Below, piece after piece: positions 2,032 to 26,630 of a DNA stretch of 64,000 nucleotides. Each line of letters starts with the position of its first letter. Positions within the stretch are counted from its first letter, which is position 1. Source of the DNA: Candidatus Parcubacteria bacterium (lineage in GTDB: Bacteria > Patescibacteriota > Minisyncoccia > Sungbacterales > SURF-37); assembly GCA_003599755.1 (NCBI GenBank), contig QZJO01000009.1, positions 86,140 to 150,139 on the forward strand, read 5' to 3'. The position numbers were made by a program, and so were the translations under genes. The notes below the pieces were generated by a model. That model was not told where the DNA came from, ran no database searches, and worked only from the letters and a program-made list of their open reading frames with translations.

Positions 2032-2053
2032 CGCTCTCGCGATGATGGATTTC

Positions 2054-7537: not shown

Positions 7538-7570
<33 letters not shown>

Positions 7571-7689: not shown

Positions 7690-7983
7690 ATAGGAGACCA
7701 ACCTGTCTCACGCATCTACACGCGTATTCCTACGCGGATTGGACTATATCTTCATCCTTCCGCTCGCGCGGGATGGGATGGCTGACGTGTAGTCTCTACG
7801 GGCTCCGCAACAGTAAGCGGATTCCCTCGGTATTGTCCGGTCTGGATTCTACCGAAATCAGTCAGCTGGCCTCGCGATATTCCTACCGCGAGCCGCCGTG
7901 AATAATGTCTTAACCTCGGGCTCAAACCGTTCATGCGCCAATCATCCGTTTGATTGACATCGCGATGCGCGATTAGCGCATCA
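7690..7983 (-). mobile_element. ORF-less group I-type intron in 23S rRNA at the position equivalent to E. coli U2593 (peptidyl-transferase region).
   Basis: The conserved run GGGUU(U/C)A(G/A)A(A/C)CGU | CGUGAGACAG is interrupted by 294 nt. Exon 1 ends in U and the insert ends in G, as expected for group I splicing. Contains a hairpin CAAACCGTT...AACGGTTTG. Track ORFs inside it (e.g. 7752..7934) are non-coding. Confidence 0.6.
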
Positions 7984-8116
7984 ACGGTTTGAACCCAGCT
8001 CGCGTACCTTTTTAATGGGCGAACAGCCCAACGCTTGGGAGCTTCTCCACCCCCGCGCTAAGGTGAGCCGACATCGAGGTGCCGAACTGCGCCGTCGCTA
8101 TGGACGCTCGGGCGCA

Positions 8117-8156
<40 letters not shown>

Positions 8157-9551
8157 TTTGGCCTTGTTCTAGTAAGTAGCACATACCCACATCTCGACCC
8201 CGAAGGGTCGAAAAGTGAATACACACCATAGCCATCGGATCACTACGTTCTGCTTTCGCACCTGCTCGGAATGTCCTCCTCGCAGTCAAGCCGGCTTTTC
8301 CCGTTACAGGTCCAGCGCGATTTCCATCCGCGCTAAGCCGACCTTTAAACCCCTCCATTACGCTTTAGGAGGGTTCTGCCCCAGACAAACTGCCTGCCAA
8401 GCACTGTCTCGCCGGAGTTTTTTCTCCGACGGTTAGGACCTAAAGGTTTCCAGAGTGGTATTTCACTGACGGCTCCATCCCGGCCGAAACCGAAACTTCA
8501 ACGCCTCCCACCTATGCTACGCAAGAAACTTCTAGACCCAATACCAAGCTGCAGTAAAGCTCCCGGGGTCTTTTCGTCTAACTGCAGGTAACCGGCATCT
8601 TCACCGGTACTGTATTTTCACCGAGCTCCACGTGGAGACAGTCCTCCGATCGTTACGCCTTTCATGCGCTTCGGAACTTACCCGAAAAGGAATTGCGCTA
8701 CTTTAACACGGTTATAGTTACCGCGGACATTGACGAGGGCTTGGCACCTCATGCCGAACAACGTTGATATAATCTCGATCACTCGACAGAAATGATTAAC
8801 CTTCTCGCATTGGTCAGGCGTCACCCCCTATACATCCTCTTACGAGTTCGCAGGGAGCTGTGTTTTTGGTAAACAGTCGCCAGAGGTACTTTCGCTGCGG
8901 CCTCGATTCATCACCGAGGCAGGCCTTATCGCGAACTTACGGCCGCTTGTTTGCCTAGTTCCTTCACGTGGACTCACTCGTTCGCCTTGGTGCATTCACA
9001 CCAACCCACCAGTGTCGGTTTCCGGTACGGTTTCTTATTGGTTAACCCTAGAGGGTTTTCTGGGAAGCGTGCTCAGCGAGCTTATCCGAGAGTCGCCCCT
9101 CGGCGTTGCCCCGGCACTCGGGACCGAGCATTACCTCTGCCGGCGGATTTGCCTACCGGCGTCCCCTATGCCGCGGACGGAAATCCCTAATCCGCCTCGC
9201 GTACTACGCTCCGTCACCCCATCAGAACCAATCAGAAGTCACGGAATATTAACCGTGTGTCCATCGGCTGCGGCTTTCGCCATTGCCTTAGGCCCGACTA
9301 ACCCTTGGATGATTGCCATTGCCAAGGAAACCTTGGGTTTGCGGCGATTCCGACTTTCACGGAATTTGCGGTTACTTGTGCCAACATTCTCTCTTCCGTA
9401 CGCTCCAGAGCTCCTCACGGATGCTCCTTCATCGCAGAACGAAATGCTCCCCTACCACGCGCGTTCGACGAATCGAACGCGCATCCGTAGCTTCGGTACT
9501 ATGCTTAGCCCCGTTGAATCTTTGGCGCCGGATCTCTTGACGAGTGAGCTG

Positions 9552-9594
<43 letters not shown>

Positions 9595-10167
9595 CGCTGT
9601 CTCTGAAATCCGACCACCTTAACCACTGAGCATAGATTTAGGGACCTTAGCTGACGATCAACGGCTGTTTCCGTTGCGCACGACGGAGCTTAGCCCCCGC
9701 CTGCTGACTCCCGGAATAACGCCCCGCGCATTCGGAGTTTGATTGGTCGCCGCGGGTTTCCCCGCTAGCGACCATCCAGTAGCTCTACCTCGCGTGACGC
9801 GTGATCCGAGGCTAGTCCAAAAACTATTTCGGGGAGAACCAGCTATTTCCAGGTTCGATTAGCTTTTCACTCCGTACCACAGCTCATCCGAGAATTTTGC
9901 ACCATTCACCGGTTCGGACCTCCCCCCGATTTTCATCGGGGCTCATCCTGGCCATGGTAAGCTCACCTGGTTTCGGGTCTCATGAGTACTACTTATTGGA
10001 ATGTAGATTGTGGAGTGTCGTTTGTGGTTTCCCACATTCTATGTTCCACATTCTACAGTCCAATGACGCGCTATTCGCACTCGGTTTCCCTGTGACTCGG
10101 TGCCGTACGGCACTTAATCAGCAGTACTCAAGAACTCGTTGGCTCATTCTTCAATAGGCACGCCGTG

Positions 10168-10468
10168 GTCCGGCACCTTCTTAAGCATTATCGAGGTCAA
10201 TTCGCTTTTTTAGTTCAGCCCAACGTTTGCCGAACTGTTTCAGTTTCTGTTCTCTTCGTCTTGCAGCTCGTTCATCCCGGAAAGCCTCATAATATATAAG
10301 CTCCCAAGGAACGCCGGCTTTCGTAGCTCGGTTCAAACCTTCATTATGACCGGCTACGCGTTTTCGAAGATCAGCTGAAAATCCAATATAGTATCGCGAA
10401 TTGACAACACTTCTGAGAACGTACACGTAGTACATTTTCTCAATATAACGCACAAGAAGGTGCCGGAC
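10168..10468 (-). other. 23S rRNA intervening sequence (IVS) in the helix-25 region (E. coli ~545). A 15-bp perfect stem (GTCCGGCACCTTCTT / AAGAAGGTGCCGGAC) encloses a 270-nt low-GC loop carrying an ORF.
   Basis: 23S sequence is continuous outside the two arms (...GGAGUCGGAGUC | stem ... stem | CACGGCGUGCCUAUUGAAGAAUGAGCC...). Arms are 10168..10182 and 10454..10468. Loop GC ~45% versus rRNA ~55%. Confidence 0.65.
10181..10453 (-). CDS. GIY-YIG nuclease-family protein (YhbQ/UPF0213-like, 90 aa) encoded inside the 23S helix-25 IVS.
   Basis: YYVYVLRS...RYYIGFSADLRKRVAGHNEG...PWELIYYEAFRDERAARRREQKLK is the canonical GIY-YIG domain (GIY..YIG..R..H/E..N). GTG start at 10453 or ATG at 10435. Stop overlaps the stem arm. 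Confidence 0.7.
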   Translation of the reverse strand: MRYIEKMYYVYVLRSVVNSRYYIGFSADLRKRVAGHNEGLNRATKAGVPWELIYYEAFRDERAARRREQKLKQFGKRWAELKKRIDLDNA

Positions 10469-11646
10469 TCCGACTCCTTGTAGACATATGGTTTCAGGTA
10501 CTATTTCATCGCCCTCACCGGGCTGCTTTTCACCGTTCCCTCACGGTACTGGTTCACTATCGGTGACGAAGAGTATTTAGCGTTGGGTCTCTAGTCGACC
10601 CGGCTTCACGCGCAGTCGCCGAACGGCGCGTTACTCAAGAATAGATTCAGAAGGCATACGACCATTTTCGAATACGGGGCTATTACCGTCTTTGGCCCGC
10701 CGTTCCAGGCGAGTTCTTCTAATAGCCGCATGTACCTTCTCGGACCGAAGTCCGACGAATCCATCTTACAACCCCCAGCAATCCGGCTTGCGCCGAATCG
10801 ATAGGTTTGCGCTGCTCCCGTTTCGCTCGCCGCTACTCAGGGAATGGGAGTCACACAAATTGGTGAACTCATGTATGCCCACCAATTTGGGTAACTCTTT
10901 GTTTTCTCTTCCTCCGCTTACTGAGATGTTTCACTTCAGCGGGTTCGCTCTCACACGGTTTTACCCGTGGAGTCTCCGACTATTAAGTCAGAGGGGTTAC
11001 CCCATTCGGAAATCCCCGGATCAAAGGTTGCTCACCACCTCCCCGAGGCTTATCGCAGGCACGCCGCGTCCTTCATCGCCTCTTCATCCCGAGGCATCCA
11101 CCATACGCCCTTGTTTGCACTCCCACCCGATTGGGTGAAAGGTTCTGCCCGCACATGTTGTCAGATATTACTTCGTATTTTGTTTTCAACGTTCGGTCAG
11201 TCCGCGTTGCCACCGTACCGGATGTCCGTATCGAACCGCGGTTCGGTCCGGGCATCTGCCACGATCGCACGAAAAAAGGCCGCTCGAGCGGCCCCAGGGG
11301 TCGACGCACGCTGGAAAGCAGCCGCCTATTCCCGAAGGGCCATTGAAATGCCGTATGTGAGAGCTTCACGCATGTTGTTCCTATTATAGGGATATCGCCG
11401 CACGCGTCAAGAGGCCGAAAAGTGGGCTTCATCCACTGTTCACCCCCACACTCATTACGGCAACATTTCCATCCCTATGTATGAAGGCGGGGGGGGTGCG
11501 TCCGCGTTGATTCTGCCCTGCAGTCATGCGCGATGCAGCGCTTCGCGTTCTTGCGCAATGAGGGCGAGGGTTAATTCGACTTCCTCCCAAATACAAACTC
11601 CCTCGGCATTGCCGGGGGAGTTTGTTCTCTGGTTCGCAAGCGGATC

Positions 11647-12594: not shown

Positions 12595-14226
12595 TTAGCG
12601 GCGCATCACCGCGTCATGTACGCGCAAAAGCCCATCACCCGTTACTCCGGATACGGCATGGAGTACAGCAGCTGTTTGTTTGAATTCCATTTCCATGCTC
12701 TCGACATCGGCGAAATTCGCATGGAGCTTAGGCACGACGACCAGACGCAGTATGCCGCGAGCAGCACCCGCGAAGACGCGATCAGCCACGCGATCAAACG
12801 CCATCGGCACCGCAGCGACGATTGACACCGCTTCGGCCCCCGCCCGGGTAAACATATCGCCGATATCCACCACTGCGATCTTGGCAGCGAATCCCACCGC
12901 CCCGCGCACGCGCCCGATGCCATCCATTGCGCGTTCCATGCCGGGCAGCCGGCCCTCGATACCCAGTTCCCCCAACATCCGAAATGGCTCGCGCCCGGCC
13001 GCGTGCAAACCGTGTGCTACCGCGCCGATCGCTCGCGCCAGTCCCCGCTGCCCGCGATCAATGGCTTGGCCGAGCGCCGCTCCGTCCAGTGGGACGGCAG
13101 ACAGGCGCGCCGCGTCCGTCATTTCCGAATTCGCTGACGGCAGAGCATCGACCAATTGATGATTGGTACCCAATGCCGCTACGGCGCTGCCTAACGTCCG
13201 CTGGATTTCATGCGCGCCGGCGGGAATCAACGCCGGGCGCACCGGCGGCGAGGATGGCACCCGAACGGGACGCCGGACCGCGATCGCGGTCCCGCCGTCG
13301 GAAAGAAACCGAAGTTCGACAATCGCTTGAGAGACCGCAATGACTCGCCACGCGGCCGAACGCCACGCGTCGAATACGATGCGATCGGAAATCGGCTGCT
13401 GACCCATAGGCGGTACGGCATGGAACGGCTCTCGCAGCATCGCATCCAGTTCCTCACGCGCCTGGACCGTCGCGCCGATCGCTGCCTTGGCAAGTGGCGC
13501 GGGCGCAGCAACTTCATTTGCAAAACGCGAAGGCGATATTGGTGAAAATGCGATATGCGACGAAGTACCGAATCGCTGAAGCGCCATGCCGATACGGTCC
13601 GTCGCGCGCACTACTGCCGCATCGCTTACCGCAATCGTACGCTCCGGCAGCGAACGCACTCCTGCGCTTGTCTGGAGAACCGCCGCTTCGCTCATGCCGC
13701 CGAACGCATATCCGAGTTCCGCCGTCGCAAAAACGAGCGCGCCGACTTCTTCGAACGCAGTAGTTGTAAACCGGGCAAATGCATCCGGCGCAGCAAAGAA
13801 CGCATGCGCAATCGGAAATTCCGGACGCGGCGCCGAAAACCGAATCGCTGGAATATTACTCACGAATGAAACCACCAGCAGCATCGCAAGCATGGCAAGC
13901 GCCGAGCCGACAAGCGATTCTGGTACGCGCAACGGTGCATGCGGCACCCGAATCGCCGCTTCCGCTTCGGACGGCATGATCGGTTCGGGTACGCGTTCGG
14001 ATTCAGAAGACGATACCCCTGAATCTTTCTCGCCGTGAAAAAATATATGCTCCTCCGCTAAGCGGACGATCGAGTCAAAGTCCGCCTGCGTATAGTAGCG
14101 CCAGCCGCGATTGTCCCGCGCTGCACGGGGAATTTTCCCCTCTTGCTCCCAACGCAGGAGAGTGCTTTTGTCGCGATCGAGCCGCTTTGTAAGGTCGATC
14201 AGGCGGTAGATGCGTTCTTCAGCCAT
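12595..14226 (-). CDS. MerR/excisionase-type HTH domain fused to a TM segment and a long Ala-rich C-terminal domain (543 aa). Hypothetical membrane-bound regulator.
   Basis: N-terminus IYRLIDLTKRLDRDKSTLLRWEQEGKIPRAARDNRGWRYYTQADFDSIVRL fits the MerR/HTH_17 pattern. Hydrophobic segment LVGSALAMLAMLLVVSFV follows. Remainder is low-complexity Ala/Arg/Val-rich with no catalytic motif. Confidence 0.55.
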   Translation of the reverse strand: MAEERIYRLIDLTKRLDRDKSTLLRWEQEGKIPRAARDNRGWRYYTQADFDSIVRLAEEHIFFHGEKDSGVSSSESERVPEPIMPSEAEAAIRVPHAPLRVPESLVGSALAMLAMLLVVSFVSNIPAIRFSAPRPEFPIAHAFFAAPDAFARFTTTAFEEVGALVFATAELGYAFGGMSEAAVLQTSAGVRSLPERTIAVSDAAVVRATDRIGMALQRFGTSSHIAFSPISPSRFANEVAAPAPLAKAAIGATVQAREELDAMLREPFHAVPPMGQQPISDRIVFDAWRSAAWRVIAVSQAIVELRFLSDGGTAIAVRRPVRVPSSPPVRPALIPAGAHEIQRTLGSAVAALGTNHQLVDALPSANSEMTDAARLSAVPLDGAALGQAIDRGQRGLARAIGAVAHGLHAAGREPFRMLGELGIEGRLPGMERAMDGIGRVRGAVGFAAKIAVVDIGDMFTRAGAEAVSIVAAVPMAFDRVADRVFAGAARGILRLVVVPKLHANFADVESMEMEFKQTAAVLHAVSGVTGDGLLRVHDAVMRR

Positions 14227-15466: not shown

Positions 15467-15476
15467 CGCGTTTTTT
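15449..15476 (+). terminator. Rho-independent terminator of efp.
   Basis: CGCGTCAGC-AAGG-GCTGACGCG followed by TTTTTT. The stem overlaps the efp stop codon. Also lies at the 3' end of the convergent ATPase gene. Confidence 0.8.
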
Positions 15477-17430
15477 AATCCAATCGGATTACCTCGCCCG
15501 GCGCCATCGCACTTCCACGCGGTGCGGCCGGTTCTTTTTTTCTCGGCCGCGATTCGATTGCGGGCGGCGGCGCAGCGATATCTTTCTCGTTCGATCGCGG
15601 CGGCATTTGCGCTGCCGGAACGCTCGCGGCGGCAGGGATTTTTTTCTCGCGCGGCTGATCGCCATTCATCGCCTCCGCAAGCGCCTTGCGCAGCTCCCCG
15701 AGATGATGCGCGGAGCGGCTTGCGTCGGCCTGCTTTGACTGATCGGAGCGCCGTTCGGACTCGCGCGCCGGCGCGGCCGGGCGAAGTTCTTTCAGCGACA
15801 ATGGTTTGGCGTCGCGCCGCGCGTTTCGATCGCGGCCGCCCTGCGGCCGCTCCCCTTGTTTTGCGGCAGAAGCGGACGCGGAAGATGTCGGAGCAGCACC
15901 GGTCGGCGCTGCCGCATCGGTTGGCGCGGTAGCGCCGTCGGCCATCTGGGAACGAAATTGGATCAAGTGCATATGTTCCTCGCAAAATACCGGCCGCTTG
16001 CCGTCGGGTTTGAACGGCACCAGGATCGACTTCTGGTCCACGGCGCATTTGGCCTCGTACATCGGCCGATCGGGTTTAGCCGCGGCAGCGCCGGCTGAGC
16101 GCAAGCCCGCGCCCGGAACCGCTTCAAAGCCGCCCAACGTGAATTCGCGAATCTTTTCCTCGACCTGGGCGCGCGGCGCGCTGTAGTGCTCCCGCGAGTA
16201 TTGAACAATCTCTTTGACGAAGGACTGCGCCGGCGTCGGCATCGGCGGCAGGGTCTCGGCCGAAAACGGCCGAGACGTCAGCCCGTCGATCATGAGTTTG
16301 AGATACACTTGCTTGAACCCGAGGTTAACGAGGTCCTGGACCATGAATTCGGGCATGAATTCTTTTTCCAAGAGTTCCGCATCTTCGGCGCCGATACGGA
16401 ACGTAATCATCGTACCGACGTTGCCGAAGATGGCATGCTGCACCTCCTCTTCCATTTGCGCAATGTATTGATGCGCAACGGTCAGGTTGAGACGGTACTT
16501 GCGCGCCTCGGACAAGATGTTTGCGAAGGACTCGGTGGCGAAGTTCTGGAACTCGTCGACGTAGAGGTAGAAATCTTTACGCTCGGGTTCGGGGATATCC
16601 ACGCGGCTCATGGCGGTAAGATACAATTTCGCCACCATCATGGCGCCCAAGAGCCGCGAATTCTCCTCGCCGATGTTCCCTTTCGAAAGATTTACGATGA
16701 AAATCTTCTGCTCATCCATGATGGCCCGCATATCCAGGGACGTCTCGACTTGGCCGATGACGTTGCGGATCAGCGGATTGCCGGAAAACTGGCCGATCTT
16801 GTTCTGAATCGCGGCCACGGCCTCGCGCATGTATTGCTCCGGATACTTGGCGAATTCGTTTTCCCAAAAACCCCGGATGACCGGATCGGTCAGCTGCGCC
16901 ACGATCTGGCGCCGGAATTCCTTTTCGCCGAACATGCGATTCACGGATAACAGCGTCGAGCCCTTTACTTGCAGCAGTGCGAGAATGGCATTGGCCAGAA
17001 GGTACTCCATGCGCGCGGACCAAACCTCCGGCCCGAAAATCTTTTTGAACACGCTCAAAAGGCCCGAGGTAATCAGATGTCGTTGGTCCTCGGCCACGGC
17101 TTCCATGACATTGAACGCCATCGGATATTCGATATCCACCGGATTGAAATACACAACGTCCTTGATGCGGTGCTCGGGCACAAATTGGAGCACCCGCTCG
17201 GCGTATTCGCCGTGCGGGTCCACGACCGCGACGCCATGACCGGCTTGGATATCCTGGATGGTCATGTTTTCCAGAAGCGTGGACTTGCCCATGCCGGTCT
17301 TTCCGATGATATAGACGTGCTTGCGTCGATCGCCGCGTTGGATGCCAAATCGCCGCCGCTGGCCGCGGAAGTTCGTCTCGCCAAAAAAGGTGATGTCTTT
17401 GTCGGATGCTCTGCCGTCCATGGATGGCAT
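15475..17430 (-). CDS. HerA/FtsK/VirD4-superfamily P-loop ATPase (DUF87/AAA_10 N-terminal domain plus TraG-D_C-like C-terminal module), with a low-complexity Ala/Pro/Arg-rich tail.
   Basis: Walker A YIIGKTGMGKSTLL; DUF87 hallmark VVDPHGEY; Walker B LYVDEFQNF; LTVAHQYIAQMEEEVQHAIFGNVGTMITFRIGAEDAELLEKEF resembles the TraD/TraG C-terminal motif. No TM segments. Confidence 0.7.
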   Translation of the reverse strand: MPSMDGRASDKDITFFGETNFRGQRRRFGIQRGDRRKHVYIIGKTGMGKSTLLENMTIQDIQAGHGVAVVDPHGEYAERVLQFVPEHRIKDVVYFNPVDIEYPMAFNVMEAVAEDQRHLITSGLLSVFKKIFGPEVWSARMEYLLANAILALLQVKGSTLLSVNRMFGEKEFRRQIVAQLTDPVIRGFWENEFAKYPEQYMREAVAAIQNKIGQFSGNPLIRNVIGQVETSLDMRAIMDEQKIFIVNLSKGNIGEENSRLLGAMMVAKLYLTAMSRVDIPEPERKDFYLYVDEFQNFATESFANILSEARKYRLNLTVAHQYIAQMEEEVQHAIFGNVGTMITFRIGAEDAELLEKEFMPEFMVQDLVNLGFKQVYLKLMIDGLTSRPFSAETLPPMPTPAQSFVKEIVQYSREHYSAPRAQVEEKIREFTLGGFEAVPGAGLRSAGAAAAKPDRPMYEAKCAVDQKSILVPFKPDGKRPVFCEEHMHLIQFRSQMADGATAPTDAAAPTGAAPTSSASASAAKQGERPQGGRDRNARRDAKPLSLKELRPAAPARESERRSDQSKQADASRSAHHLGELRKALAEAMNGDQPREKKIPAAASVPAAQMPPRSNEKDIAAPPPAIESRPRKKEPAAPRGSAMAPGEVIRLD

Positions 17431-17433
17431 AAA

Positions 17434-18717
17434 CTAAATCGGCAATGTCGGCGGAGGCTCCGCGCGCCGCGCCGGAATGCGCGGCAACAGCGGGGCCTTG
17501 GTTGCCAAGCCTGGAAAATGGAAAATCGTCGCAAGCTCTTCGCTATTCAATACGATCCGCTTTGATTTCATCAGAATGGTATCGGTGAAGCGCTTGCGCA
17601 GCCGGAAATATTTATAGAAGAGCTGCTTCTTTTCGAGCTTCACCTTGCGCTTGAGGAATCCGGGCCACCACCAGGTAGTTGCCGTGGCCATGGCATTGCC
17701 ATTGAGTTTAAAGCTATTGAGCGTAAGCGTATTATATTGCTTCAGGCCGCCGATGAATGAGGACAGATGGGATAGGCCGAAACGGTCACGCCGCGCGATA
17801 TAGGTGAAACGGATCACCGTCGAGAAGCCCGGCTTTGTGATGTTGCGGGAGATCGCCTTAATCTGCTCTTCGATATTCGCCGGAATCATCTTGAATTCGA
17901 ATGCCGGCTTTTTCTCCGGAGCCGGTTGCGCGGTTCCGAGTAACGCGCCGGATAATTCCTGCGCTATCATTCCGATCATGCTTTTTTTCTCCGGTACTTT
18001 TTCCCCCGCGAGTTTTTTGATCAGCGCCTCACCCTCGACTTTCCAATCGTCATCCTCCGCCGGTTGGAACAATAGCTGGTAGGCCATGTATTCGCCCGGC
18101 CCGATTTTACCGAACGCTTCGGCCATGGACGAAAACGGATCGACTTTCTCATATTCCTCCTGGCCCGGCTGCATGGAGACGAAATCCCGGTAGGTACGGA
18201 TCGGATAGGCATCTTCTTTCGCCAGGGAAAATTCGATGCCGAACAAATCCCATTCGGGCGTCGGCATGGTCGGCGGCAGTCGCCGGACGTAGTCCTCCAC
18301 TTCCACGACCTCGGCTTCGGGATACTGGGCGTAGAGATGGTTTTCGACGACGTTGCGGAAAAAAACCGGCGTGCGGATGTAAAAATGCACCTCGCCCTCG
18401 AGCGAGACCATTTCGAATATGATGTAATCGCGCTGCAGCCCCTGCCACCAGACCTCAAGCGGATCCAACGACCAAATCATGGTCTGCAATCCGCCGTAGA
18501 GCTGCTCCATCGCCTCAGGTGTTTTGGGGATGTCGCGCGGAATGCGTATCTCCAAAAGTACCCATTCGAGATTGGCGAAGTACCGTACCTTCAAATAGTA
18601 CTTCCAGAGCGCCCTGCCCGTGACAAAGAGCATGGGCGGCATCCACATCCACCACGTGTGGCTAAACAGCGCCACAACGATCGCGAGGTTATCAAGAAAA
18701 TCGAAGATGAATCCCAT
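17434..18717 (-). CDS. Hypothetical membrane-anchored protein (427 aa, one N-terminal TM, Trp-rich). Probable partner of the downstream ATPase.
   Basis: 4-nt gap to the ATPase gene on the same strand. TM segment FLDNLAIVVALFSHTWWMWMPPMLFV. No recognised domain. Confidence 0.5.
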   Translation of the reverse strand: MGFIFDFLDNLAIVVALFSHTWWMWMPPMLFVTGRALWKYYLKVRYFANLEWVLLEIRIPRDIPKTPEAMEQLYGGLQTMIWSLDPLEVWWQGLQRDYIIFEMVSLEGEVHFYIRTPVFFRNVVENHLYAQYPEAEVVEVEDYVRRLPPTMPTPEWDLFGIEFSLAKEDAYPIRTYRDFVSMQPGQEEYEKVDPFSSMAEAFGKIGPGEYMAYQLLFQPAEDDDWKVEGEALIKKLAGEKVPEKKSMIGMIAQELSGALLGTAQPAPEKKPAFEFKMIPANIEEQIKAISRNITKPGFSTVIRFTYIARRDRFGLSHLSSFIGGLKQYNTLTLNSFKLNGNAMATATTWWWPGFLKRKVKLEKKQLFYKYFRLRKRFTDTILMKSKRIVLNSEELATIFHFPGLATKAPLLPRIPARRAEPPPTLPI

Positions 18718-18831
18718 AGAACTAGTATACGAAAGGCGGCGTTGCGGCCCAACCTATCGCGCTGGACAAGTTCCGGCCTACCATACGCCGACGGCTGCGG
18801 TTTTCAAGCGACCGGAACCCGAATGCCCGAC

Positions 18832-19872
18832 TTAGACCAGCTGGTACCCCTCGGTTGACCGGCGAAAGAGATCCTTGTTTTGCAGATTCAAAAACACGGT
18901 ATTCGGCTTCACGAAGCGCTGCGCCAGCACCCGCTTGGCGATCTCTTCTTTGGGCAGCGGCCGCTTCGCATTGCGCAAAATTTCGGCAATGATATCGCTG
19001 ACCGTGCCCGGCTGGTAGCCCCATTCGGACAACGCATACAGCCCCCGCCCCACGAGCACGAATCGGGAATCCTTGATCAGTTCATTGTGCACGGTCTGCG
19101 GATGCGCCCGGTGGTTGGACCAGCCCGACTTCGAAATGGCGCCCGCCACTTCCCGGAAATGCATGGGCTTTTGGGCCCGCGCGAGTACCGCGTAGGCCTT
19201 GTCCTTCACGCCGCGCGGTCGGATCGTCGGCCACGAGACCAAGCCGAACTCGCCATACGGATTCTGCTTGATGAGTTTCGAGATACTCAAATACGATTCG
19301 AGCGTATCGGGATTCGGCACGGAGCCAAGCACGTCGCGCGCGTGCGTCTTCAAAATCTGGAACATATCGGCCGCGGGAATGGGCTTTTTCTTTTCGGCCA
19401 ATTCTTCGGCCGCGCGGGCCATGATCGACTGCGCGGCTTTCAGCGATTCTTCTTTCGTATACCAGCGGTCGTGCCACGTATCTTCCTCGCGCTTAGCCGA
19501 AAACGGTTGGCCGACGGTCAACAGGAAATACACGTGATTGTGGAATTTCGGTTCAATGACCGAATGGAGCAGCTTTGATTCCTCGCACACGTGTCCGTGA
19601 TGGGCAAAATGATTTTCGAGTGCGGCAAACGTCGGCGCGAATGCGGCGACGGCCTCGGATTTGGCAAGCTGGCGCAATCCCTCGGCTTCGATCTGGCGCA
19701 CCCGTTCCCGAGTGACCTTGAACGAGCGACCAATGGATTCGAGCGTCTCGGGTTCCTTACCGCGGAGCCCAAACCGGCGCTCTAACACCTCGCGCACCCG
19801 CGCCGAAGGAAGCGACTTGAGGGCAGTCGCGATCACTTCGCGGGGATGGACGGGAAGAGTAAGTTTTTGCAT
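18832..19872 (-). CDS. Sigma-70 region-4-like HTH protein with a C-terminal HARE-HTH (RNAP-delta-like) domain.
   Basis: N-terminal [28 protein letters not shown] matches sigma-70 r4. C-terminal [24 protein letters not shown]...[18 protein letters not shown] matches the HARE-HTH pattern. Confidence 0.6.
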
Positions 19873-19881: not shown

Positions 19882-20793
19882 CTACGCGGCTCGCATGCGT
19901 CCGGCACGGCGTTCGTCCCAGCGGCGCCAGGTAACCAGAAGCGGGCTTGCAATACAGATAGAAGAATACGTTCCGGCAATAATGCCGATAATCAAGGTAA
20001 TACTGAACATTTTGGTGCTCTGGCCGCCAAAGAGCCACACGGCCCCTAACGCCAGAACCACAGTCAGCGAGGTATTGATCGATCGGACGAGCGTCTCGCG
20101 CACGCTTCTGGCCACCAGAAGCGAAAACTCGTCCCCCGGGCGGCGGGAAAGATTCTCGCGGACCCGGTCAAACACTACAATCGTATCATGGACCGAAAAG
20201 CCCAAAATTGTCAAGATAGCGGTCACAGCAAGCATATCGACCTCGTATCCCCAAAACATTCCGGCTAGCGCGAAGAATCCGACGGGTATGGCGACATCGT
20301 GCAAGAGGGCGATGACGGTTACGATGCCGTATTTCCAAGACGCAACAGGCAATGAAACCTTTCGGAAGGCAAATGCGATGTAGGAAACGATCAGGAGGAT
20401 CACAAGGCCGATCGCGACCAGCGATCGGCGGGCCATTTCGCGGCCGATCGTCGGGCCGATGGTATCGTAGCGGCGTTCGGCGAACTCCCCGCCCGTATGG
20501 CGTACCGCGGCGCCCAGGGCCTGATGCTCTTCTTCGGTGACATGGCGAAACCGCAGGATCATTCCCTGCTCACCCGTCGGTTGGATGCTTACGCTGCCCA
20601 GATCCAACGGCGCGATAGCCGCTCGCATGGCCTCTACCTCCGGCCGCGCGTTCATGAATTCTATTTCCCAAAGCGTGCCGCCGGTAAAATCAATGCCGAG
20701 GCGCAATCCGGCAAATACCAATAGCACCACGCTTGCCGCGATCACGAGCGCCGAAAGGCCATACCAGAGCGAACGAAGTTTGATGACGGACAT
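19882..20793 (-). CDS. secF: Protein-export membrane protein SecF.
   Basis: 303 aa with the SecF pattern (GIDFTGGT...VHDTIVVFDRVREN). Confidence 0.9.
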   Translation of the reverse strand: MSVIKLRSLWYGLSALVIAASVVLLVFAGLRLGIDFTGGTLWEIEFMNARPEVEAMRAAIAPLDLGSVSIQPTGEQGMILRFRHVTEEEHQALGAAVRHTGGEFAERRYDTIGPTIGREMARRSLVAIGLVILLIVSYIAFAFRKVSLPVASWKYGIVTVIALLHDVAIPVGFFALAGMFWGYEVDMLAVTAILTILGFSVHDTIVVFDRVRENLSRRPGDEFSLLVARSVRETLVRSINTSLTVVLALGAVWLFGGQSTKMFSITLIIGIIAGTYSSICIASPLLVTWRRWDERRAGRMRAA

Positions 20794-20799: not shown

Positions 20800-22161
20800 T
20801 CAAGAAGCGATACCGCGCGCGAATCCCGACGTGAACAGCCACCGCGCCCGTCCCAGGCGGGGCGCGAGCGCCGCGAATAGGAACGTCCGCGATACGGTGA
20901 TGGCCGACAGCATGGAAATGAGCACCCCGATGCCGAGCGTCAGCGCGAATCCACGCACCGCGCTCTGGCCGAGCCAGTACAAGATGAGCGCCGTGATCAA
21001 GCTCGACACGTTCGAATCGCGGATCGAAGTCCAGGCGCGAGCGAATCCTTCCCGGATCGCCGCCGGCAAATCGCGGCCGCGCTCCAGCTCTTCACGCATG
21101 CGTTCGAATATCAGAATATTCGCGTCCACCGCCATGCCGATCGAAAGAATGAAGCCGGCGATGCCCGCGGCGGTGAGCGTTACCGGAATCGCCTTGAACA
21201 ACAAGAGCATAATCGCGGCATAGATGACCAACGCGAGGACCGCGATGAGGCCGGGCAGCCGGTACCAGAAAAGCATGAAAACCGCGACCGCAAGAAACCC
21301 GACCACGACCGCGGCCAAGCTCTTCTGGAGCGAATCTTTGCCGAGCGACGCTTCCACCGTCTGCTGGTTGACGAGCGTGATCGGAACGGGCAGCGCGCCG
21401 GCGTTCAGCCGCCGTACCAGTTCCCGCGCTTCGGCGACCGTAAATTGACCCGTGATCTGCGCGCGGCCGCCGGTGATCGTCTCGCTCACCACCGGGGTCG
21501 AAAGCGGCGCGCCGTCCAAATAAATCCCGATAGGCCGGCCGACGTTGCGTGCGGTGATGACCTCGAACAATGCCGCGCCTTCATCGGTAAACTGCACGCT
21601 GATGAGCGGAGCGTTGGTCGTAGGATCGAACTGCAAATCCGCGCGCTCAAGATACCGGCCAGTCAGTTCCGTGGGCTGGAAAAACGGATCTTCAATCACT
21701 TCTTCGCCGTTTTGCGCGCGTTCGAGCAGCGCCTGGGTTTCGGCTTCGGGCCGCGGCTCTTTGAATTCAAGAAACGGCGTCTCGCCGATCTGACGGATCG
21801 CCTCGTTGATGTCGCGCACGCCGGCGAGTTCCACCGCCAGCCGGTATTCGTCGCCCGAGCGCTCTACTTGCACGACGGGTTCCGTGACGCCGAAAAGGTT
21901 TACCCGCCGTTCGATCACGTCGCGCAGGCCATCCATGGCCTCGGCCGGCGAGGCGCCGGCAAACGACGAAAAATCGGCGCGATAGAGCAGATGCGTCCCG
22001 CCTTGGAGATCAAGACCAAGACGGTACGGCCGCGTGACCGCGCCGATGCCGGGAATCGCGGCAAGCTGCGGCACGAAATCAGCGACCGCAACGGCGCCGG
22101 CGATCATGCCGACGACCAAAATCAGGATTGCCGCGATGCGCAGGCGAAACGTTCCGTTCAT
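20800..22161 (-). CDS. secD: Protein-export membrane protein SecD.
   Basis: 453 aa (LGLDLQGGTHLLY...MAVDANILIFERMREE). Adjacent to secF. Confidence 0.9.
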   Translation of the reverse strand: MNGTFRLRIAAILILVVGMIAGAVAVADFVPQLAAIPGIGAVTRPYRLGLDLQGGTHLLYRADFSSFAGASPAEAMDGLRDVIERRVNLFGVTEPVVQVERSGDEYRLAVELAGVRDINEAIRQIGETPFLEFKEPRPEAETQALLERAQNGEEVIEDPFFQPTELTGRYLERADLQFDPTTNAPLISVQFTDEGAALFEVITARNVGRPIGIYLDGAPLSTPVVSETITGGRAQITGQFTVAEARELVRRLNAGALPVPITLVNQQTVEASLGKDSLQKSLAAVVVGFLAVAVFMLFWYRLPGLIAVLALVIYAAIMLLLFKAIPVTLTAAGIAGFILSIGMAVDANILIFERMREELERGRDLPAAIREGFARAWTSIRDSNVSSLITALILYWLGQSAVRGFALTLGIGVLISMLSAITVSRTFLFAALAPRLGRARWLFTSGFARGIAS

Positions 22162-22230: not shown

Positions 22231-23028
22231 TCAGAGCTTGGCCGGGATAAAATTGCCTACGCGTTCCCGCCAGATGCAAAACACGCATTCCGGGCTCGGG
22301 TCGGGAATCGGCTGTTCGAGGACGGTGATCCCCCGCTTGATGCGCGGCAGGACTGAGAGTGGATCGGTCTTCAATGTTTTGACCACCACGGCCATTTGCA
22401 CGCCATTGTGCAGATCCTCCGTGGAATCCGGATAGTAATAGATCAGGTGGCCGATGCCCGAAGTCGGCTTGCCGTTGGATTCGAGCAAAAACGCATACGC
22501 ATCGAGCTGCTCTTGATAGGAAGCGTACATTGCCCGCTCGATGCGCGGATCGGAACTCGAGGTCTTGTGGTCTACGGGCGTATACGTGCCGTCGGCGCGA
22601 ACCAGGCATTCGTCGAGTTTTCCCTTAAATCCGTATTGATCGTCCACGCGATAGAAATACTCCTCTTGGAACGGCGATTCGAGCCGGCCCTCGACGTGGC
22701 CGGCCACGATCGGCGGCAACTCGTCTGTGCCGCGAAAGCGGTCGAAATAATGCTTTACCAGTACGTCAAAGCGGTTCGCAAGCCGCGAGACAATGCCTTC
22801 GGGCTGGTAAATCCCTTGCCGATACTGCAGCCAAAAACAGCGCGGGCAGCGGTCCAGGCCGCCGAGACCCGTATGCGAGAGCCAGATCTTTCGGCCGTTG
22901 CGTCCGTTAGCCGCAGGCTTGGCGGCCGGCACGGATTTCGCGTTTTCGTTCAGCGGCATACTCATTTGCATATTCCGTTGGAGATCGCCTTTACCGGCAT
23001 ATCGCACAGCGCACCATGGGCTCTGCAA
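22231..23028 (-). CDS. Stand-alone Cas4/RecB-like PD-(D/E)xK nuclease with a 4-Cys Fe-S cluster.
   Basis: N-terminal CPRC and C-terminal ECVFC cysteines; VDHKTS (D..K) and QEQLDAYAFLL (QxxxY) motifs typical of the Cas4/AddB nuclease domain. No CRISPR array or other cas genes in the window. Confidence 0.65.
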   Translation of the reverse strand: MQSPWCAVRYAGKGDLQRNMQMSMPLNENAKSVPAAKPAANGRNGRKIWLSHTGLGGLDRCPRCFWLQYRQGIYQPEGIVSRLANRFDVLVKHYFDRFRGTDELPPIVAGHVEGRLESPFQEEYFYRVDDQYGFKGKLDECLVRADGTYTPVDHKTSSSDPRIERAMYASYQEQLDAYAFLLESNGKPTSGIGHLIYYYPDSTEDLHNGVQMAVVVKTLKTDPLSVLPRIKRGITVLEQPIPDPSPECVFCIWRERVGNFIPAKL

Positions 23029-23160
23029 ACCATCAGCCCGCTTCCGCCATCATTGGCGATTTCTAACGGGGCACACCATCTCAGTATAGTGATCGATCGG
23101 AAAAAAGAAACCCGTCACGCGCTTGCTGGCGCGCGACGGGTCCTCGAGGTTATGGAGGCG

Positions 23161-23541
23161 TCAATCGTCGCAGCCGGGCCGGTCGCGCGGCGGCACGAAA
23201 CTCGCCAACATGCGCCGACTTTCCGCGGTCACACGCTCGAGCTCGGCATGCGCCGCAGTGTCAGGAATAATCTCGGGATTCCCAACGAGCTGCCACCGAC
23301 GCTGGCGCCCCGAAAGGAGCACCTCGATTTGATGGAGCAAGCGCGTCCGGACGATGGCATCCCCTTCCGCATAGTGGCAGGTACATGCAGGCAGGTCTTC
23401 CAGATTGAACTCGATGATGAAGACCCGCGCCGGCATCGCCACCATACGAATCGGGAATGCGCCGCGCATTGCGCGATCGATGTTGTGAGCTGCCGGTGCG
23501 TCGGGGTGCCCTCGATACACCAACGTGAACTTCGCGTACAT
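23161..23541 (-). CDS. Hypothetical protein (126 aa).
   Basis: ORF track only; no recognised motif. Sits between dinB and the Cas4-like gene on the same strand. Confidence 0.35.
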   Translation of the reverse strand: MYAKFTLVYRGHPDAPAAHNIDRAMRGAFPIRMVAMPARVFIIEFNLEDLPACTCHYAEGDAIVRTRLLHQIEVLLSGRQRRWQLVGNPEIIPDTAAHAELERVTAESRRMLASFVPPRDRPGCDD

Positions 23542-23579
23542 GCGCCCCTCCTGGCGATCGGAATCAAGTGTGCTGCCGA

Positions 23580-24683
23580 TTAGTATACTCTGTCCGCCCG
23601 TGATTGGGCACGCGCAAGTTTTTCAACACGCACGCCGATGAGCCGAATCGCTTTCCTTCGAGGGTTTTCCCGCGCATCCAAAAACGGCAACAACATCCGG
23701 AGCGATTCGGCGTACAGATCGTCGGCCGATGTCAGCGGCGTTCGGCTCGTATGCGACCGGGTAGCGGTTGCGAAATCCGCGAATCGGACGGTAATCACCA
23801 CAGTGCGAAACGTGGCGAACCCTTCGTTGTGGAGTCGCCGCACAACCGCCGCGCCCAGATCCCGCATGCGCTCGAGTATGAACGACGCGGCAAGCGTGTC
23901 GCGCTCGAACGTTTCTTGCTCCCCTACGGATTTGGGCTCCCCGTCGTTCGAAACAGGATCTTCGGACTGGCCGCGGGCATGGCGCCAAAGGCCGTCGCCC
24001 CATTTCCCGAATGCCTCGACAAGTACGGTCCGCGAAATATTGTGCAGATCGCCGATCGTACGGACGCCGCGCTTGGCAAGCTCTGTCTCGGTCTTCGGGC
24101 CGATGCCGGGCAGCGCACGGATCGCGAGCGGTGCAAGAAATTCGAGAACGCCGTCCGGCTCCACCACGGTGAGGCCGTCGGGTTTTTTGAAGTCCGACGC
24201 GATTTTTGCGACAAGCTTGTTTGGTCCGACGCCGATCGATGCGGTCAACCGCTCATTCTCGCGGATCGCGCGCTTGATCCGTTCAGCGAGCACGCGCGCC
24301 TTCGCGAATGAACCGGCTGACGAAACATCCACATACGCCTCGTCGATGCTCGCTTGTTCGAACCGATCCCCGAGCGGCGCGATGATGGCCATAATGCGCT
24401 CCGACGCGTCCTCGTATGCGTGAAAATTGGGCGTAACGAAAATCGTCGCTAATTCGCCCCGGCGCCGTGCGTCCTCGGCAAGCCGCCAGGCCCGGGAAAT
24501 CGGCATGGCTGAACGAATGCCATAACGCCGCGCCGCGTAGTTCGCAGTCGAGACCACGCCGCGCCCGCTGCCGCCCTGCGGATCAGCGCCGACCACAACG
24601 GGCTTATGGGAAAACTGCGGATTCTCCCGCTCCTCCACGGCGGCGAAAAACGCATCCATGTCTATATGTAAAATAATGCGCAT
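23580..24683 (-). CDS. dinB: DNA polymerase IV (Y-family).
   Basis: ILHIDMDAFFAAVEERENP...ASIDEAYVDVS: canonical DinB N-terminus with catalytic D..D/E. Confidence 0.9.
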   Translation of the reverse strand: MRIILHIDMDAFFAAVEERENPQFSHKPVVVGADPQGGSGRGVVSTANYAARRYGIRSAMPISRAWRLAEDARRRGELATIFVTPNFHAYEDASERIMAIIAPLGDRFEQASIDEAYVDVSSAGSFAKARVLAERIKRAIRENERLTASIGVGPNKLVAKIASDFKKPDGLTVVEPDGVLEFLAPLAIRALPGIGPKTETELAKRGVRTIGDLHNISRTVLVEAFGKWGDGLWRHARGQSEDPVSNDGEPKSVGEQETFERDTLAASFILERMRDLGAAVVRRLHNEGFATFRTVVITVRFADFATATRSHTSRTPLTSADDLYAESLRMLLPFLDARENPRRKAIRLIGVRVEKLARAQSRADRVY

Positions 24684-25079: not shown

Positions 25080-26630
25080 TCAATCCGCCGGCTGCTCCTC
25101 GATGATGTTCTCTCCATTACCGATCGACTGGTAGATCGCCGCGCCCGTCCTCACTGGTGCGGCCGCTGGTTCATCGCCGGCGAACACGGTTCCGTAGACG
25201 TAATTCTCTTCCAAGTAGTCGATCACATGCTCGACATCGCGCGTCCGATCCTGCGAACCGAGTACGATGATCGCTACCGATCGCGTTCCGCCTTCGGAAA
25301 GACGCACGCGAAATACGCCGGCCAGGGTCTGGCCCGCGGCCGATGATTGGCCAGCTTTGCCGCCGAGGAATCGTTCGTCGTCGCGCCAATTCCCGTTGAT
25401 CCAGGTGTAACGCTCGCCGTTGACCGAAGTAATCGATTTTTCGCGGAGCGCCGCGATATCGAAAATAGGTTTTTTATGCTGGCTCAAAAACCGGAGTAGT
25501 TTGAAGATATCCTCGGCCGTAGAAACGTTTTGGGCGCCAATGCCGCTGGCATCCGCGAACGTCGTACGATGCATGCCGATGGCAGCGGCCTTTTGGTTCA
25601 TGGTATCTACGAACCGCCAGCCGTGGCGCGGATACAGCTCCGCAACGTCATTGGAGGACTCGAGCAGCAATGGATACAAAAGATCCTGCGAGCGGAATAT
25701 CTCACCCGCTTCGATGCCCTGGACGTGGCCCGGATAATCCAAAGCATTGGCTGGAATGCGGATCTCCTTGAAGCGATTGATGGACTCTATCGCCACGAGC
25801 GCAGTCATGAGCTTGGTAACGCTTGCGATCGGCCGCACGGCCTCGCGCTCGCGCTCAAACAGCACTCTGCCGGTCTCGAAATCCACGGCCAGGACGGATG
25901 GCGCGCTGATCGCGGGCGCAGGAGCCGGCCGGCCGTCGGTTCCGACGCGCCGGAAATATGCCCCTGCATCAGCCGGCGTCGCGTGGCCGGCATAGACCAG
26001 GACCGGCATGCCGTTTTTCGTTTCGCGGAAAAGTTCTTCCGAATCGGCCGTAGAAAGGCGAATGCAGCCGCCCGAATACGTATCCGCGACCGGCGCGCCG
26101 CTCGGGTAATACGGCCAGCCGTGGATGAAATAATTGCCGTAAAAATGCATGCTCCAGGGCATCCATACCTCACCAATGGAAGAAAAATGGTTCTCTTCCC
26201 GGGAGCGGATCTTATAGACACCGTTGGGCGTCTCGAAAAAACTGCCTTCTTCGCCGCGCGCCTTGATGGGAAATGCTTTTGCCGGAGCGCCTTCCCGCCA
26301 TACGACAATCTCCATCGCGGCAAGATCGGCGAATACAAAATCTTCACCCGCGGCAGCGAGTTTTTCCCGCTCGACAAGTACCGCTTCGCCGTTGGCAAAA
26401 ATCACCGCCCCGTCTTCGAGCGTCTGGTACTGCGGCTCGTTTGTTGTCGCCGGCGGTTCTCCGAAATCCGGCCGCGCGTCCACGACCGACCACTGGCCGA
26501 GGCGCCATGCGCCGAACCAAAGCCCGCTGAGCGCGGCAAACGCCAAGATGGTCACGATGACCCGCGGATGATACGCCGTTGGCATGGAAGTAGTCGATTG
26601 TACGCTACCGAGTTCTGAGTGCTTCATCAA
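25080..26630 (-). CDS. Fusion protein: N-terminal L,D-transpeptidase (YkuD) domain plus C-terminal serine-type D-Ala-D-Ala carboxypeptidase (PBP5/S11-like) domain, N-terminally membrane-anchored.
   Basis: L,D-TPase catalytic motif HGWPYYPSGAPVADTYSGGCIRL. D,D-CPase motifs SVTKLMTA (SxxK), LESSNDVA (SxN), GGKAG (KTG-like). N-terminal TM segment. Confidence 0.7.
   Translation of the reverse strand: MMKHSELGSVQSTTSMPTAYHPRVIVTILAFAALSGLWFGAWRLGQWSVVDARPDFGEPPATTNEPQYQTLEDGAVIFANGEAVLVEREKLAAAGEDFVFADLAAMEIVVWREGAPAKAFPIKARGEEGSFFETPNGVYKIRSREENHFSSIGEVWMPWSMHFYGNYFIHGWPYYPSGAPVADTYSGGCIRLSTADSEELFRETKNGMPVLVYAGHATPADAGAYFRRVGTDGRPAPAPAISAPSVLAVDFETGRVLFEREREAVRPIASVTKLMTALVAIESINRFKEIRIPANALDYPGHVQGIEAGEIFRSQDLLYPLLLESSNDVAELYPRHGWRFVDTMNQKAAAIGMHRTTFADASGIGAQNVSTAEDIFKLLRFLSQHKKPIFDIAALREKSITSVNGERYTWINGNWRDDERFLGGKAGQSSAAGQTLAGVFRVRLSEGGTRSVAIIVLGSQDRTRDVEHVIDYLEENYVYGTVFAGDEPAAAPVRTGAAIYQSIGNGENIIEEQPAD

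Follow-up and report, generated by a model that had tools for sequence, protein, structure and literature searches.

Homologs of the VirD4-type ATPases, the type IV coupling proteins (T4CPs) of type IV secretion systems (T4SSs), have been counted in 2,918 of 3,035 Patescibacteria genomes, for a total of 5,713 genes (Quinonero-Coronel et al. 2025, PMC12102498). Only 148 of the 5,713 lie near virB4, and VirB4 is found in 2,417 genomes (PMC12102498). A gene of this family lies in the stretch of DNA analyzed here, 64,000 nucleotides (nt) from a Candidatus Parcubacteria bacterium (assembly GCA_003599755.1, contig QZJO01000009.1, positions 86,140 to 150,139 of the forward strand); the whole stretch is called the window below. 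It is the last of three genes on the minus strand, all present where an initial annotation, made from the letters without database searches, had placed them. The first encodes a 346-amino-acid (aa) protein combining sigma-70 region 4 with a HARE-HTH domain, called the sigma4/HARE protein here (18832..19872). The second encodes a 427-aa membrane protein of the Pfam family PF26449, which we take to be DUF8128 (17434..18717). The third encodes a 651-aa, T4CP-like ATPase that lacks a transmembrane segment (15475..17430). The trio is a real, vertically inherited, single-copy core operon in hundreds of ultra-small Patescibacteria species, and we lean toward the view that it provides a two-part, membrane-tethered motor of VirB4/VirD4 lineage that works outside conjugation and most likely moves DNA.

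Functional data on a comparable locus come from Southlakia epibionticum, a member of the Saccharimonadia that has been studied by transposon-insertion sequencing (Tn-seq; Wang et al. 2023, PMC10633639). Its gene SEML1_0294, which encodes a 349-aa protein whose Sigma70_r4 domain spans aa 27-72 and whose HARE-HTH domain spans aa 225-283, was essential at all time points, whereas SEML1_0293, directly downstream (2,766 bp, 921 aa, TrwB_AAD_bind at aa 402-719), was called non-essential (PMC10633639). The normalized reads of SEML1_0293 fall from 5817 to 2940 to 1372 and those of its neighbors are flat; both genes are flagged as "core family" and "Patescibacteria enriched" (PMC10633639). As at the locus described here, the sigma4/HARE gene stands directly upstream, on the same strand, of an ATPase with TrwB_AAD_bind, DUF87 and TraG-D_C. 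The differences lie in the length of that ATPase and in its neighbors, which are CRISPR-Cas9, GNAT and topoisomerase I genes rather than SecDF and EF-P. About 400 N-terminal residues of SEML1_0293 are without an ECOD assignment (PMC10633639), and from the protein's length, its Pfam coordinates and the synteny, this region is apparently a fused DUF8128 half. A T4CP-like paralog of 1,019 aa, SEML1_0142 (annotated as containing a TraM recognition domain), is essential (PMC10633639). The authors of the 2025 survey report the Southlakia homolog as non-essential and write that exaptation "cannot be ruled out" (PMC12102498). The survey speaks of "the" non-essential t4cp homolog, and the two Southlakia paralogs may need separating.

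A coupling ATPase with a separate anchor has been proposed before. In pIP501, a small membrane protein encoded separately, TraI, is proposed to hold the T4CP TraJ at the membrane (T4SS nomenclature review, PMC12857230). The pair described here is similar in that a soluble coupling ATPase would be recruited by a separately encoded membrane protein. Unlike DUF8128, which has a large VirB4-like domain and a housekeeping context, TraI is a small protein with two transmembrane segments from a conjugative plasmid. Both the ATPase family and its orphan status ("orphan T4CP", 2025) are already known, and Pfam lists DUF8128 as a DUF. The suggestion in the initial annotation that the system is undescribed therefore needs narrowing. 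ATPase homologs far from virB4 have been published (PMC12102498), as has the Southlakia Tn-seq experiment (PMC10633639). What stands is that the literature search found no paper on DUF8128, on its pairing with the ATPase, on the VirB4-like fold of the partner, on the phage fusions or on the operon with the sigma4/HARE gene.

The motor ATPase and its membrane partner

The ATPase scores above the Pfam gathering thresholds for TrwB_AAD_bind (38.9 bits, cut-off 20.5), T4SS-DNA_transf (36.4 bits), DUF87 (35.3 bits) and TraG-D_C (27.8 bits), with the DUF87 match covering aa 36-153 only. The motifs on which the initial annotation relied are all in place: Walker A GKTGMGKS at aa 43-50 (17281..17304, minus strand), VDPHGEY at aa 70-76, Walker B YVDEFQNF at aa 290-297 (16540..16563, minus), HQYIAQ at aa 320-325 and GNVGTMITFRIGAEDAE at aa 336-352. 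Across 88 homologs, the G, K, G, G and K of Walker A and the D, E, F, Q, N and F of Walker B are invariant. The motor is of the T4CP type, and its active site is intact.

An AlphaFold2 (AF2) model built with the 88 homologs reaches a predicted local distance difference test (pLDDT) score above 90 over aa 50-330 and is disordered from about aa 497. Only a short beta-hairpin precedes the P-loop in this model, and a helical insertion of about 110 residues separates Walker A from Walker B (about aa 114-225, 16756..17091, minus; helices 111-222 in the numbering of the model, to which 3 is added for the open reading frame, ORF). The insertion corresponds to the all-alpha domain of T4CPs. The absence of transmembrane helices noted earlier is borne out by the hydropathy profile of the ATPase, in which the highest 19-residue Kyte-Doolittle mean is 1.45 and falls inside the all-alpha domain.

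Structural comparison of the model with Foldseek places TrwB first (E 3e-11; template modeling score normalized to the target, TMt, 0.60-0.64), followed by DotL, HerA and Cag-beta, and the VirB4 C-terminal domain (4ag5) ranks after the T4CPs and HerA at E 4e-7. VirD4-like and TraD models likewise rank first in NCBIfam, at scores far below their equivalog cut-offs: 57.1 bits against 250 for conju_CD1115, 50.6 against 366 for SXT_TraD, 32.8 against 648 for TOL TraD and 15.3 against 521 for F-type TraD. The VirB4 models give 17 bits against 643 (TIGR00929) and 22.8 against 590 (VirB4_plasma). PADLOC returns partial matches to mad8 (E 2e-13) and HerA (E 1e-10), which are generic P-loop matches. 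The first description of the ATPase as HerA/VirD4-like can be sharpened, with the motor closest to T4CPs such as TrwB and DotL and the partner resembling the N-terminal domain of VirB4.

T4CPs (TrwB, VirD4, TraD and DotL) are the best structural and Pfam matches, and they share with the ATPase the RecA-like nucleotide-binding domain, the Walker A and B motifs and the inserted all-alpha domain. The differences are also clear. The transmembrane domain of a T4CP is N-terminal in the same chain, whereas the anchor here is a protein of its own, and the ATPase has an extra zinc ribbon, is encoded by a core chromosomal gene and has no linked relaxase or T4SS genes. The ribbon is a treble clef of the CxxC-x17-CxxC type (15961..16068, minus) that matches Pfam zf_Tbcl_2 at aa 455-485 (30.0 bits, cut-off 27) as well as TIGR04272 and is modeled at pLDDT 85-95. 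Its ligands in the window copy are C462-x2-D465 and C483-x2-H486, and the strict CxxC...CxxC/H pattern is found in 53 of the 88 homologs. Beyond about 150 disordered residues rich in A, P and R, the protein ends in the motif APGEVIRLD (15478..15504, minus), which is conserved in most of the 88 homologs with the family consensus (L/I)(K/R)PGE(S/T)I(K/R)F(E/D). This terminal peptide is a candidate motif for docking to a partner. The combination of a disordered tail and a terminal motif is reminiscent of the tail of TraD.

The initial annotation found no recognizable domain in the membrane protein. This does not hold, since an identical database protein carries a precomputed match to PF26449 (PF26449.1), as do most of 120 listed homologs; the local Pfam, NCBIfam and PADLOC libraries gave no match to the 427-aa protein. 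Its AF2 model (mean pLDDT 89.8, predicted template modeling score 0.85) begins with helices at aa 2-20 and 22-49 and continues into a compact alpha/beta domain. The N-terminal helical pair (aa 2-49) is hydrophobic and rich in tryptophan, an amino acid that makes up 13 of the 427 residues. A transmembrane helix is predicted at aa 21-38 (TWWMWMPPMLFVTGRALW; 18604..18657, minus), in a segment whose hydrophobicity is conserved in the family. The hydropathy maximum of the window protein is 1.78, and among 104 family members a 19-residue window reaches at least 1.2 in 95% and at least 1.6 in 61%. By the positive-inside rule, K39, K43 and R45, which follow the helix, would place the globular domain in the cytoplasm and make the protein a single N-out/C-in anchor. 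The predicted arrangement is one transmembrane helix, with an amphipathic helix ahead of it and a cytoplasmic fold like the VirB4 N-terminal domain behind it.

The link to VirB4 comes from fold comparison. The top 14 Foldseek matches of DUF8128 in the Protein Data Bank (PDB) are all TrwK/VirB4 of plasmid R388, 13 of them with a probability of 0.99-1.00 and E 3e-4 to 1e-3 and the 14th with 0.66 and E 1.4e-2, and the search gave no credible PDB match beyond TrwK/VirB4. In BFVD, the matches are the N-terminal halves of phage G gp156 (E 3e-17; template modeling score normalized to the query, TMq, 0.49) and of a protein of phage JL (5e-16), a protein of phage Slash, and the N-terminus of phage G gp155 (5e-7). 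DUF8128 thereby appears to have a fold otherwise seen only in the N-terminal regions of VirB4-type proteins. Taken together, the two genes would resemble VirB4/TrwK in encoding a membrane-associated N-terminal domain and then a motor domain. They differ from it in that this layout is divided between separate genes, that the motor has more in common with VirD4 and that there are no VirB3, VirB6 or VirB8 neighbors. The C-terminal tail of DUF8128 (VLNSEELATIFHFPG...APLLPR...EPPPTLPI; 17437..17553, minus) consists of near-invariant columns, with the family pattern EELATIYHFP...APLLPR.EAKKGEPP.GLP invariant or nearly so, yet its pLDDT is low after aa 400, which makes it a second candidate docking motif.

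A conserved trio and its fused relatives

DUF8128 is encoded in at least 593 species-level genomes, and where a record title gives a lineage, it indicates Patescibacteria, or the candidate phyla radiation (CPR). A word-indexed search gave 912 family matches, and with an E limit of 1e-3 the family amounts to 3,686 clusters when grouped at 50% identity. Gene order was compared in 80 related genomic loci oriented on DUF8128. The sigma4/HARE gene is directly upstream on the same strand in all 80 (79 by clustering and one incomplete), extending to the relatives what had been seen in the window, and the spacer between the two genes has a median of 44 nt and is at most 300 nt in 77 of 79. The ATPase gene is directly downstream of DUF8128 in 65 of the 80, at a median gap of 26 nt. 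The relatives' upstream spacer is usually shorter than the 114 nt found in the window (18718..18831, minus), which suggests co-transcription, and the invariant adjacency together with the short spacers makes the trio look like an operon. Given at least 593 species and a conserved gene order, the arrangement is far beyond chance; the trio is conserved and chromosomal and probably co-transcribed. The ATPase itself has a median identity of 56% across 63 relatives, the same as that of SecD in the same loci.

The reading frames of the pair are close together in the window. The stop codon of DUF8128 and the ATG of the ATPase are 3 nt apart (TAG ttt ATG), so that the translational coupling proposed in the initial annotation stands and its 4-nt gap does not. 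The NCBI record starts the ATPase at Met4, giving a 648-aa protein and a spacer of 12 nt; the database proteins identical to those of the window carry the locus tags C4552_02530 and C4552_02535 of a Candidatus Parcubacteria metagenome-assembled genome.

The setting is that of an ordinary chromosome. The window scan covered 46 of its 54 non-overlapping ORFs of at least 120 aa, the other eight lying between 43.5 and 63.8 kb, and among those 46 there was no T4SS component, relaxase, integrase or pilin, in line with what had first been noted around the module. The flanks of the 80 related loci, up to 8 kb per side, contain no T4SS gene among their recurrent gene families. The three genes have a GC content of 0.56-0.57, similar to their flanks, with no anomaly. 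Profile hidden Markov models (HMMs) found no paralogs in the window. The two findings that would have spoken most directly against the initial annotation were thus both looked for, with the outcome that the partner is conserved beside the ATPase in relatives and fused to it in Bacillus phages, and that the ATPase lies off any integrated conjugative element.

The Bacillus phage homologs (gp156 of phage G, gp27.4 of SPO1, the proteins of CP-51, JL and Shanette; PHROG 5156) have the same modules in the same order in one polypeptide of 825-913 aa. In phrog_5156 (824 positions), DUF8128 matches at 75-289 (E 1.9e-11) and the ATPase at 414-804 (E 9e-58). Profile HMMs run on gp156 are likewise colinear, with DUF8128 at aa 49-318 (63.7 bits) and the ATPase at aa 381-796 (174 bits), and both gp156 (825 aa) and gp27.4 (906 aa) carry the motor in the C-terminal half. 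BLASTP aligns the DUF8128 motif LNxEELAxxxHxPG just ahead of the gp156 motor, and the conserved tail of DUF8128 aligns colinearly with gp156 aa 259-318, the inter-domain linker of the fused proteins. This colinear mapping places the split between the two CPR genes in the linker. The phage motor is 25-29% identical to the CPR ATPase, and the phage proteins differ from the CPR pair in being without the N-terminal transmembrane helix (gp156 starts after it), the zinc ribbon and the tail. Profile and fold methods, or the motor alone, reach the Bacillus phages; a tblastn search of DUF8128 against 50,697 phage records found nothing, and a scan of IMG/VR with the DUF8128 profile gave no real match, only one spurious 38-residue alignment. 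No function is annotated for the fused proteins in the retrieved records. Phage G gp156 adjoins a VirB4-like ATPase, gp155, whose N-terminus shares the DUF8128 fold, and SPO1 gp27.4 adjoins a Replic_Relax protein, gp27.3.

Possible roles of the module

In the reading favored here, DUF8128 would tether the motor to the inner face of the membrane, and the pair would amount to a "VirB4-shaped" protein with a VirD4 engine. The motor may form a hexameric ring docked via DUF8128, like its relatives, and hydrolysis of nucleoside triphosphates would thread a polymer through it. That polymer is most likely DNA, because the closest structural matches are T4CPs, some of which handle DNA and some only protein, and the DNA translocase HerA; because the zinc ribbon and the basic tail look nucleic-acid-binding; and because the SPO1 homolog is found beside a Replic_Relax gene. 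The module is independent of conjugation and probably also of the essential function of the Patescibacteria T4SS. The archaeal Ced/Ted and HerA-NurA systems are similar in combining a membrane partner with an ATPase of the HerA/VirB4 superfamily, with HerA matched as 4d2i and 9x1m. In the case of Ced, the CedD match is confined to the P-loop (38.5 bits, cut-off 600) and Ced membrane proteins were not detected, and in the case of HerA-NurA, no HAS-barrel, NurA-type nuclease or SIR2 partner was detected.

Several points weigh against this reading. DotL and Cag-beta, which are also close structural matches, move proteins, and the SecDF synteny might be a sign of protein export. Globally, DUF8128 matches VirB4 with low scores (TMq 0.30-0.35, root-mean-square deviation about 11 Å), and it is the phage matches and the logic of length that assign the match to VirB4's N-terminal domain. 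DUF8128 has no sequence-level match to VirB4, and a PDB profile search gave only a chance match, 6emo (E 0.1). No ATPase match was found in 15 of the 80 loci, two of which end at a contig end, and the sigma4/HARE-DUF8128 arrangement is kept in them. In at least five such loci that were checked, YceG/MltG (three) or NusA (two) follows DUF8128, so the pair is separable at the level of gene order. The fusion in Saccharimonadia is read from length, Pfam coordinates and synteny, and the different essentiality of SEML1_0293 and SEML1_0294 argues that the sigma4/HARE protein is more than a subunit of the machine.

The sigma4/HARE protein has Pfam matches above the gathering score to Sigma70_r4 (aa 18-70) and HARE-HTH (aa 222-284), and its layout is a region 4.2-like domain, an unassigned middle, the HARE-HTH domain and a C-terminal region. 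The N-terminus is close to region 4 of RpoS and RpoD (PDB sequence matches, E 1e-11) and keeps the -35 recognition helix TRERVRQIE. No sigma region 2 was found with Pfam or NCBIfam, and NCBIfam sigma models match over their C-terminal 60 or so positions only, with 25-64 bits against cut-offs of 240-800. The model for the delta subunit of RNA polymerase (RNAP), TIGR04567, scores 27.2 bits against a cut-off of 42, and HARE-HTH is internal here. With no region 2 and a delta score below the cut-off, the protein is by definition neither a sigma factor nor RpoE. PADLOC matches the sigma4 domain to MzaA (partial, helix-turn-helix), and the literature search found nothing relevant on HARE-HTH combined with sigma region 4 in CPR bacteria.

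The best-surviving alternative is a machine of two genes only, with the sigma4/HARE protein as a separate transcription factor, RNAP-associated and essential in its own right, that merely shares an ancient operon. The essentiality of SEML1_0294 in Southlakia, where the ATPase is dispensable, implies that the essential role of the sigma4/HARE protein must lie outside the motor. The family is also tightly constrained in length (346-347 aa), its sigma 4.2 recognition helix is intact, and the gene stays beside DUF8128 even where no ATPase gene follows. Set against this is the adjacency in 80 of 80 loci at a median spacer of 44 nt, in Paceibacteria-type lineages and, by annotation, in Saccharimonadia, which in rearranged genomes is unusually strict for unrelated genes. 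The alternative is a serious contender that we nonetheless stop short of calling probable. The invariant adjacency suggests, speculatively, that the sigma4/HARE protein controls the operon or connects the motor with DNA or RNAP. Most likely it binds DNA or RNAP as a partner or regulator and has a further essential task itself, without being an obligate structural subunit. For the idea that the three genes form one machine, the adjacency has held up and the shared function has become doubtful, given the Southlakia result. The most far-reaching version of the favored reading, a phylum-wide split of a VirB4 N-domain anchor and a VirD4-type motor that has left the T4SS and works with the sigma4/HARE protein as a membrane-tethered DNA pump, is for now a speculative and rather unlikely proposition.

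A second alternative is that the pair is the true coupling protein of the Patescibacteria T4SS, acting in trans and recruiting protein (or DNA) substrates. Its nearest structural and HMM relatives are T4CPs, whose genes are often far from virB4 (PMC12102498), and pIP501 TraJ/TraI offers a precedent for a T4CP without a transmembrane domain that uses a separate small membrane anchor (PMC12857230). The VirB4-like fold of DUF8128 could also dock on the inner-membrane parts of a T4SS. The distribution speaks otherwise, with VirD4-type homologs in more genomes (2,918) than VirB4 (2,417) and no T4SS gene among the scanned window ORFs or in the flanks of the related loci. In Southlakia, moreover, the T4SS is essential and SEML1_0293 is not, and the essential SEML1_0142 is a better candidate for the T4SS partner. 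We regard a role in trans as doubtful.

Uptake or scavenging of DNA, with the motor as an analog of ComFA that pulls DNA through ComEC, is a sub-case of the DNA-translocase reading. In about 9-10 of the 80 loci, ComEC (Competence and metallo-beta-lactamase, MBL, genes) is encoded two to three genes downstream of the ATPase. EF-P/MnmA or TrmD intervene there, and a separate MBL-domain gene follows ComEC in 7 of 9. Among the tabulated genes of Southlakia are ComEC, a ComFC-like gene and, at a distance of five genes from the module, DprA (SEML1_0298), and neither ComFA nor ComEA is annotated (PMC10633639). The Southlakia comEC is non-essential, like the ATPase gene, and the zinc ribbon and basic tail are consistent with nucleic-acid binding. 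The linkage to ComEC is regional, though, with housekeeping genes in between, and does not extend to this window, and many competent bacteria manage without ComFA. Such a specific role is a tentative guess that we would not expect to hold.

A membrane-tethered translocase for chromosome segregation or division, similar to FtsK/SftA with DUF8128 as the tether, appears quite improbable. The ATPase is among the HerA/FtsK-related ASCE (additional strand, catalytic glutamate) ATPases, it is a core gene conserved at a housekeeping level, and envelope and division genes are found in the window (FtsW/RodA, 5020..6144). The ATPase has, on the other hand, no Pfam match to the FtsK_SpoIIIE motor, the gamma domain or the four-transmembrane N-terminus of FtsK, and Southlakia, in which its counterpart is dispensable, has a separate canonical and essential FtsK, SEML1_0096 (PMC10633639). 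A literature search on FtsK in Parcubacteria yielded nothing informative. That the trio is what is left of an integrated conjugative element, or else an anti-phage defense module of the HerA type, is scarcely credible: the T4CP-type Pfam matches and the PADLOC matches to mad8, HerA and MzaA speak for it, and they are set against the same housekeeping chromosomal synteny in 80 species, NCBIfam and PADLOC matches that are far below cut-offs or limited to the P-loop or helix-turn-helix, no integrase, relaxase, VirB4, nuclease or SIR2 effector nearby among the scanned window ORFs, no GC anomaly, no presence on viral contigs, and no sign of patchy strain-level presence, flanking att sites or an effector gene. 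A defense system, which the initial annotation had raised, was rejected because the trio, a core operon present in single copy and surrounded by SecDF, EF-P and rRNA genes, has no effector gene, and the PADLOC matches are partial.

Genomic surroundings and significance for Patescibacteria

Directly upstream of the trio in the window are secF (19882..20793, minus), which ends 9 nt upstream of the sigma4/HARE start, and, preceding it, secD (20800..22161, minus), both identified with Pfam. SecD/SecF are found upstream of the trio in 39 of the 80 loci and are a frequent conserved neighbor that is not claimed as part of the machine. Across the window and the related loci, the housekeeping neighbors are SecDF, SecA, EF-P, MnmA, AlaRS, YceG and rRNA. 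A YceG-family gene is present in 15 of the 80 loci. The remainder of the window encodes EF-P, DinB, SecA, a YkuD/S11 peptidoglycan enzyme, MurB, FtsW/RodA, a mechanosensitive-channel-domain protein, a cluster for glycan and nonulosonic acid synthesis, and a 23S-5S rRNA pair.

The spacer between the sigma4/HARE and DUF8128 genes contains one weak promoter-like site, TTGAAA-16-TATGGT (18807..18780, minus). Promoter-like sites in the region are not above the expectation from shuffled sequence, and there is no positional enrichment of -10 elements across the 79 related spacers. Rfam gave nothing significant in the spacers, the sole listed match to a small RNA being below threshold (E 0.26).

Other features of the window were noted in passing. 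The 23S rRNA match (7418..11126, minus) spans 3,709 nt as compared with the 2,925-nt Rfam model, so that roughly 780 nt of inserted sequence, in one or more pieces, must lie inside it, much like the introns or insertions of CPR rRNA genes. The 5S rRNA lies at 7062..7178 (minus); no 16S rRNA adjoins the pair, and no tRNA is found across the whole 64-kb window. A 543-aa protein (12595..14226, minus) has a MerR-type helix-turn-helix at aa 7-51 only, with some 490 residues without a family match, and is also found downstream of the module in one related locus (L003). A single 516-aa protein (25080..26630, minus) joins a YkuD L,D-transpeptidase domain to a Peptidase_S11 D-Ala-D-Ala carboxypeptidase domain. 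In this CPR genome, 36527..59642 is taken up by a long gene cluster for cell-surface glycans, which includes NeuB (48041..49243), UDP-GlcNAc 2-epimerase (46805..48037), a Wzy_C O-antigen-ligase/tetratricopeptide repeat protein (40216..42462), a sugar transferase, a Glyphos_transf-domain protein of the CDP-glycerol glycerophosphotransferase type, and epimerases. Large ORFs without a Pfam match at the thresholds used are found at 2054..3649 (minus, 531 aa), 55818..57314 (minus, 498 aa), 1054..2085 (plus, 343 aa) and 22396..23583 (plus, 395 aa).

Patescibacteria make up a very large share of bacterial diversity, and their near-universal "orphan" VirD4-like genes have been flagged as unexplained in published work. 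What is added here is that an orphan motor has a dedicated and conserved partner, DUF8128, with a VirB4-like fold; that the two halves are fused in phages and apparently in Saccharimonadia; and that the operon includes an essential sigma4/HARE protein. In genomes this small, conservation as tight as that of SecD in hundreds of species makes it likely that the gene pair is important. With SEML1_0293 and SEML1_0294, a relative open to genetics provides a defined unit for tests and a functional handle on a DUF. If the module does pump DNA, one candidate role is that of the cytoplasmic motor so far lacking for uptake or scavenging of DNA via ComEC in organisms that cannot make nucleotides, and another is to hand chromosomal or promoter-bound DNA to the membrane. 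The pair also illustrates how the ATPase parts of a T4SS may be recombined, here by joining a VirB4 N-domain to a VirD4 motor, and turned by exaptation to uses other than secretion.

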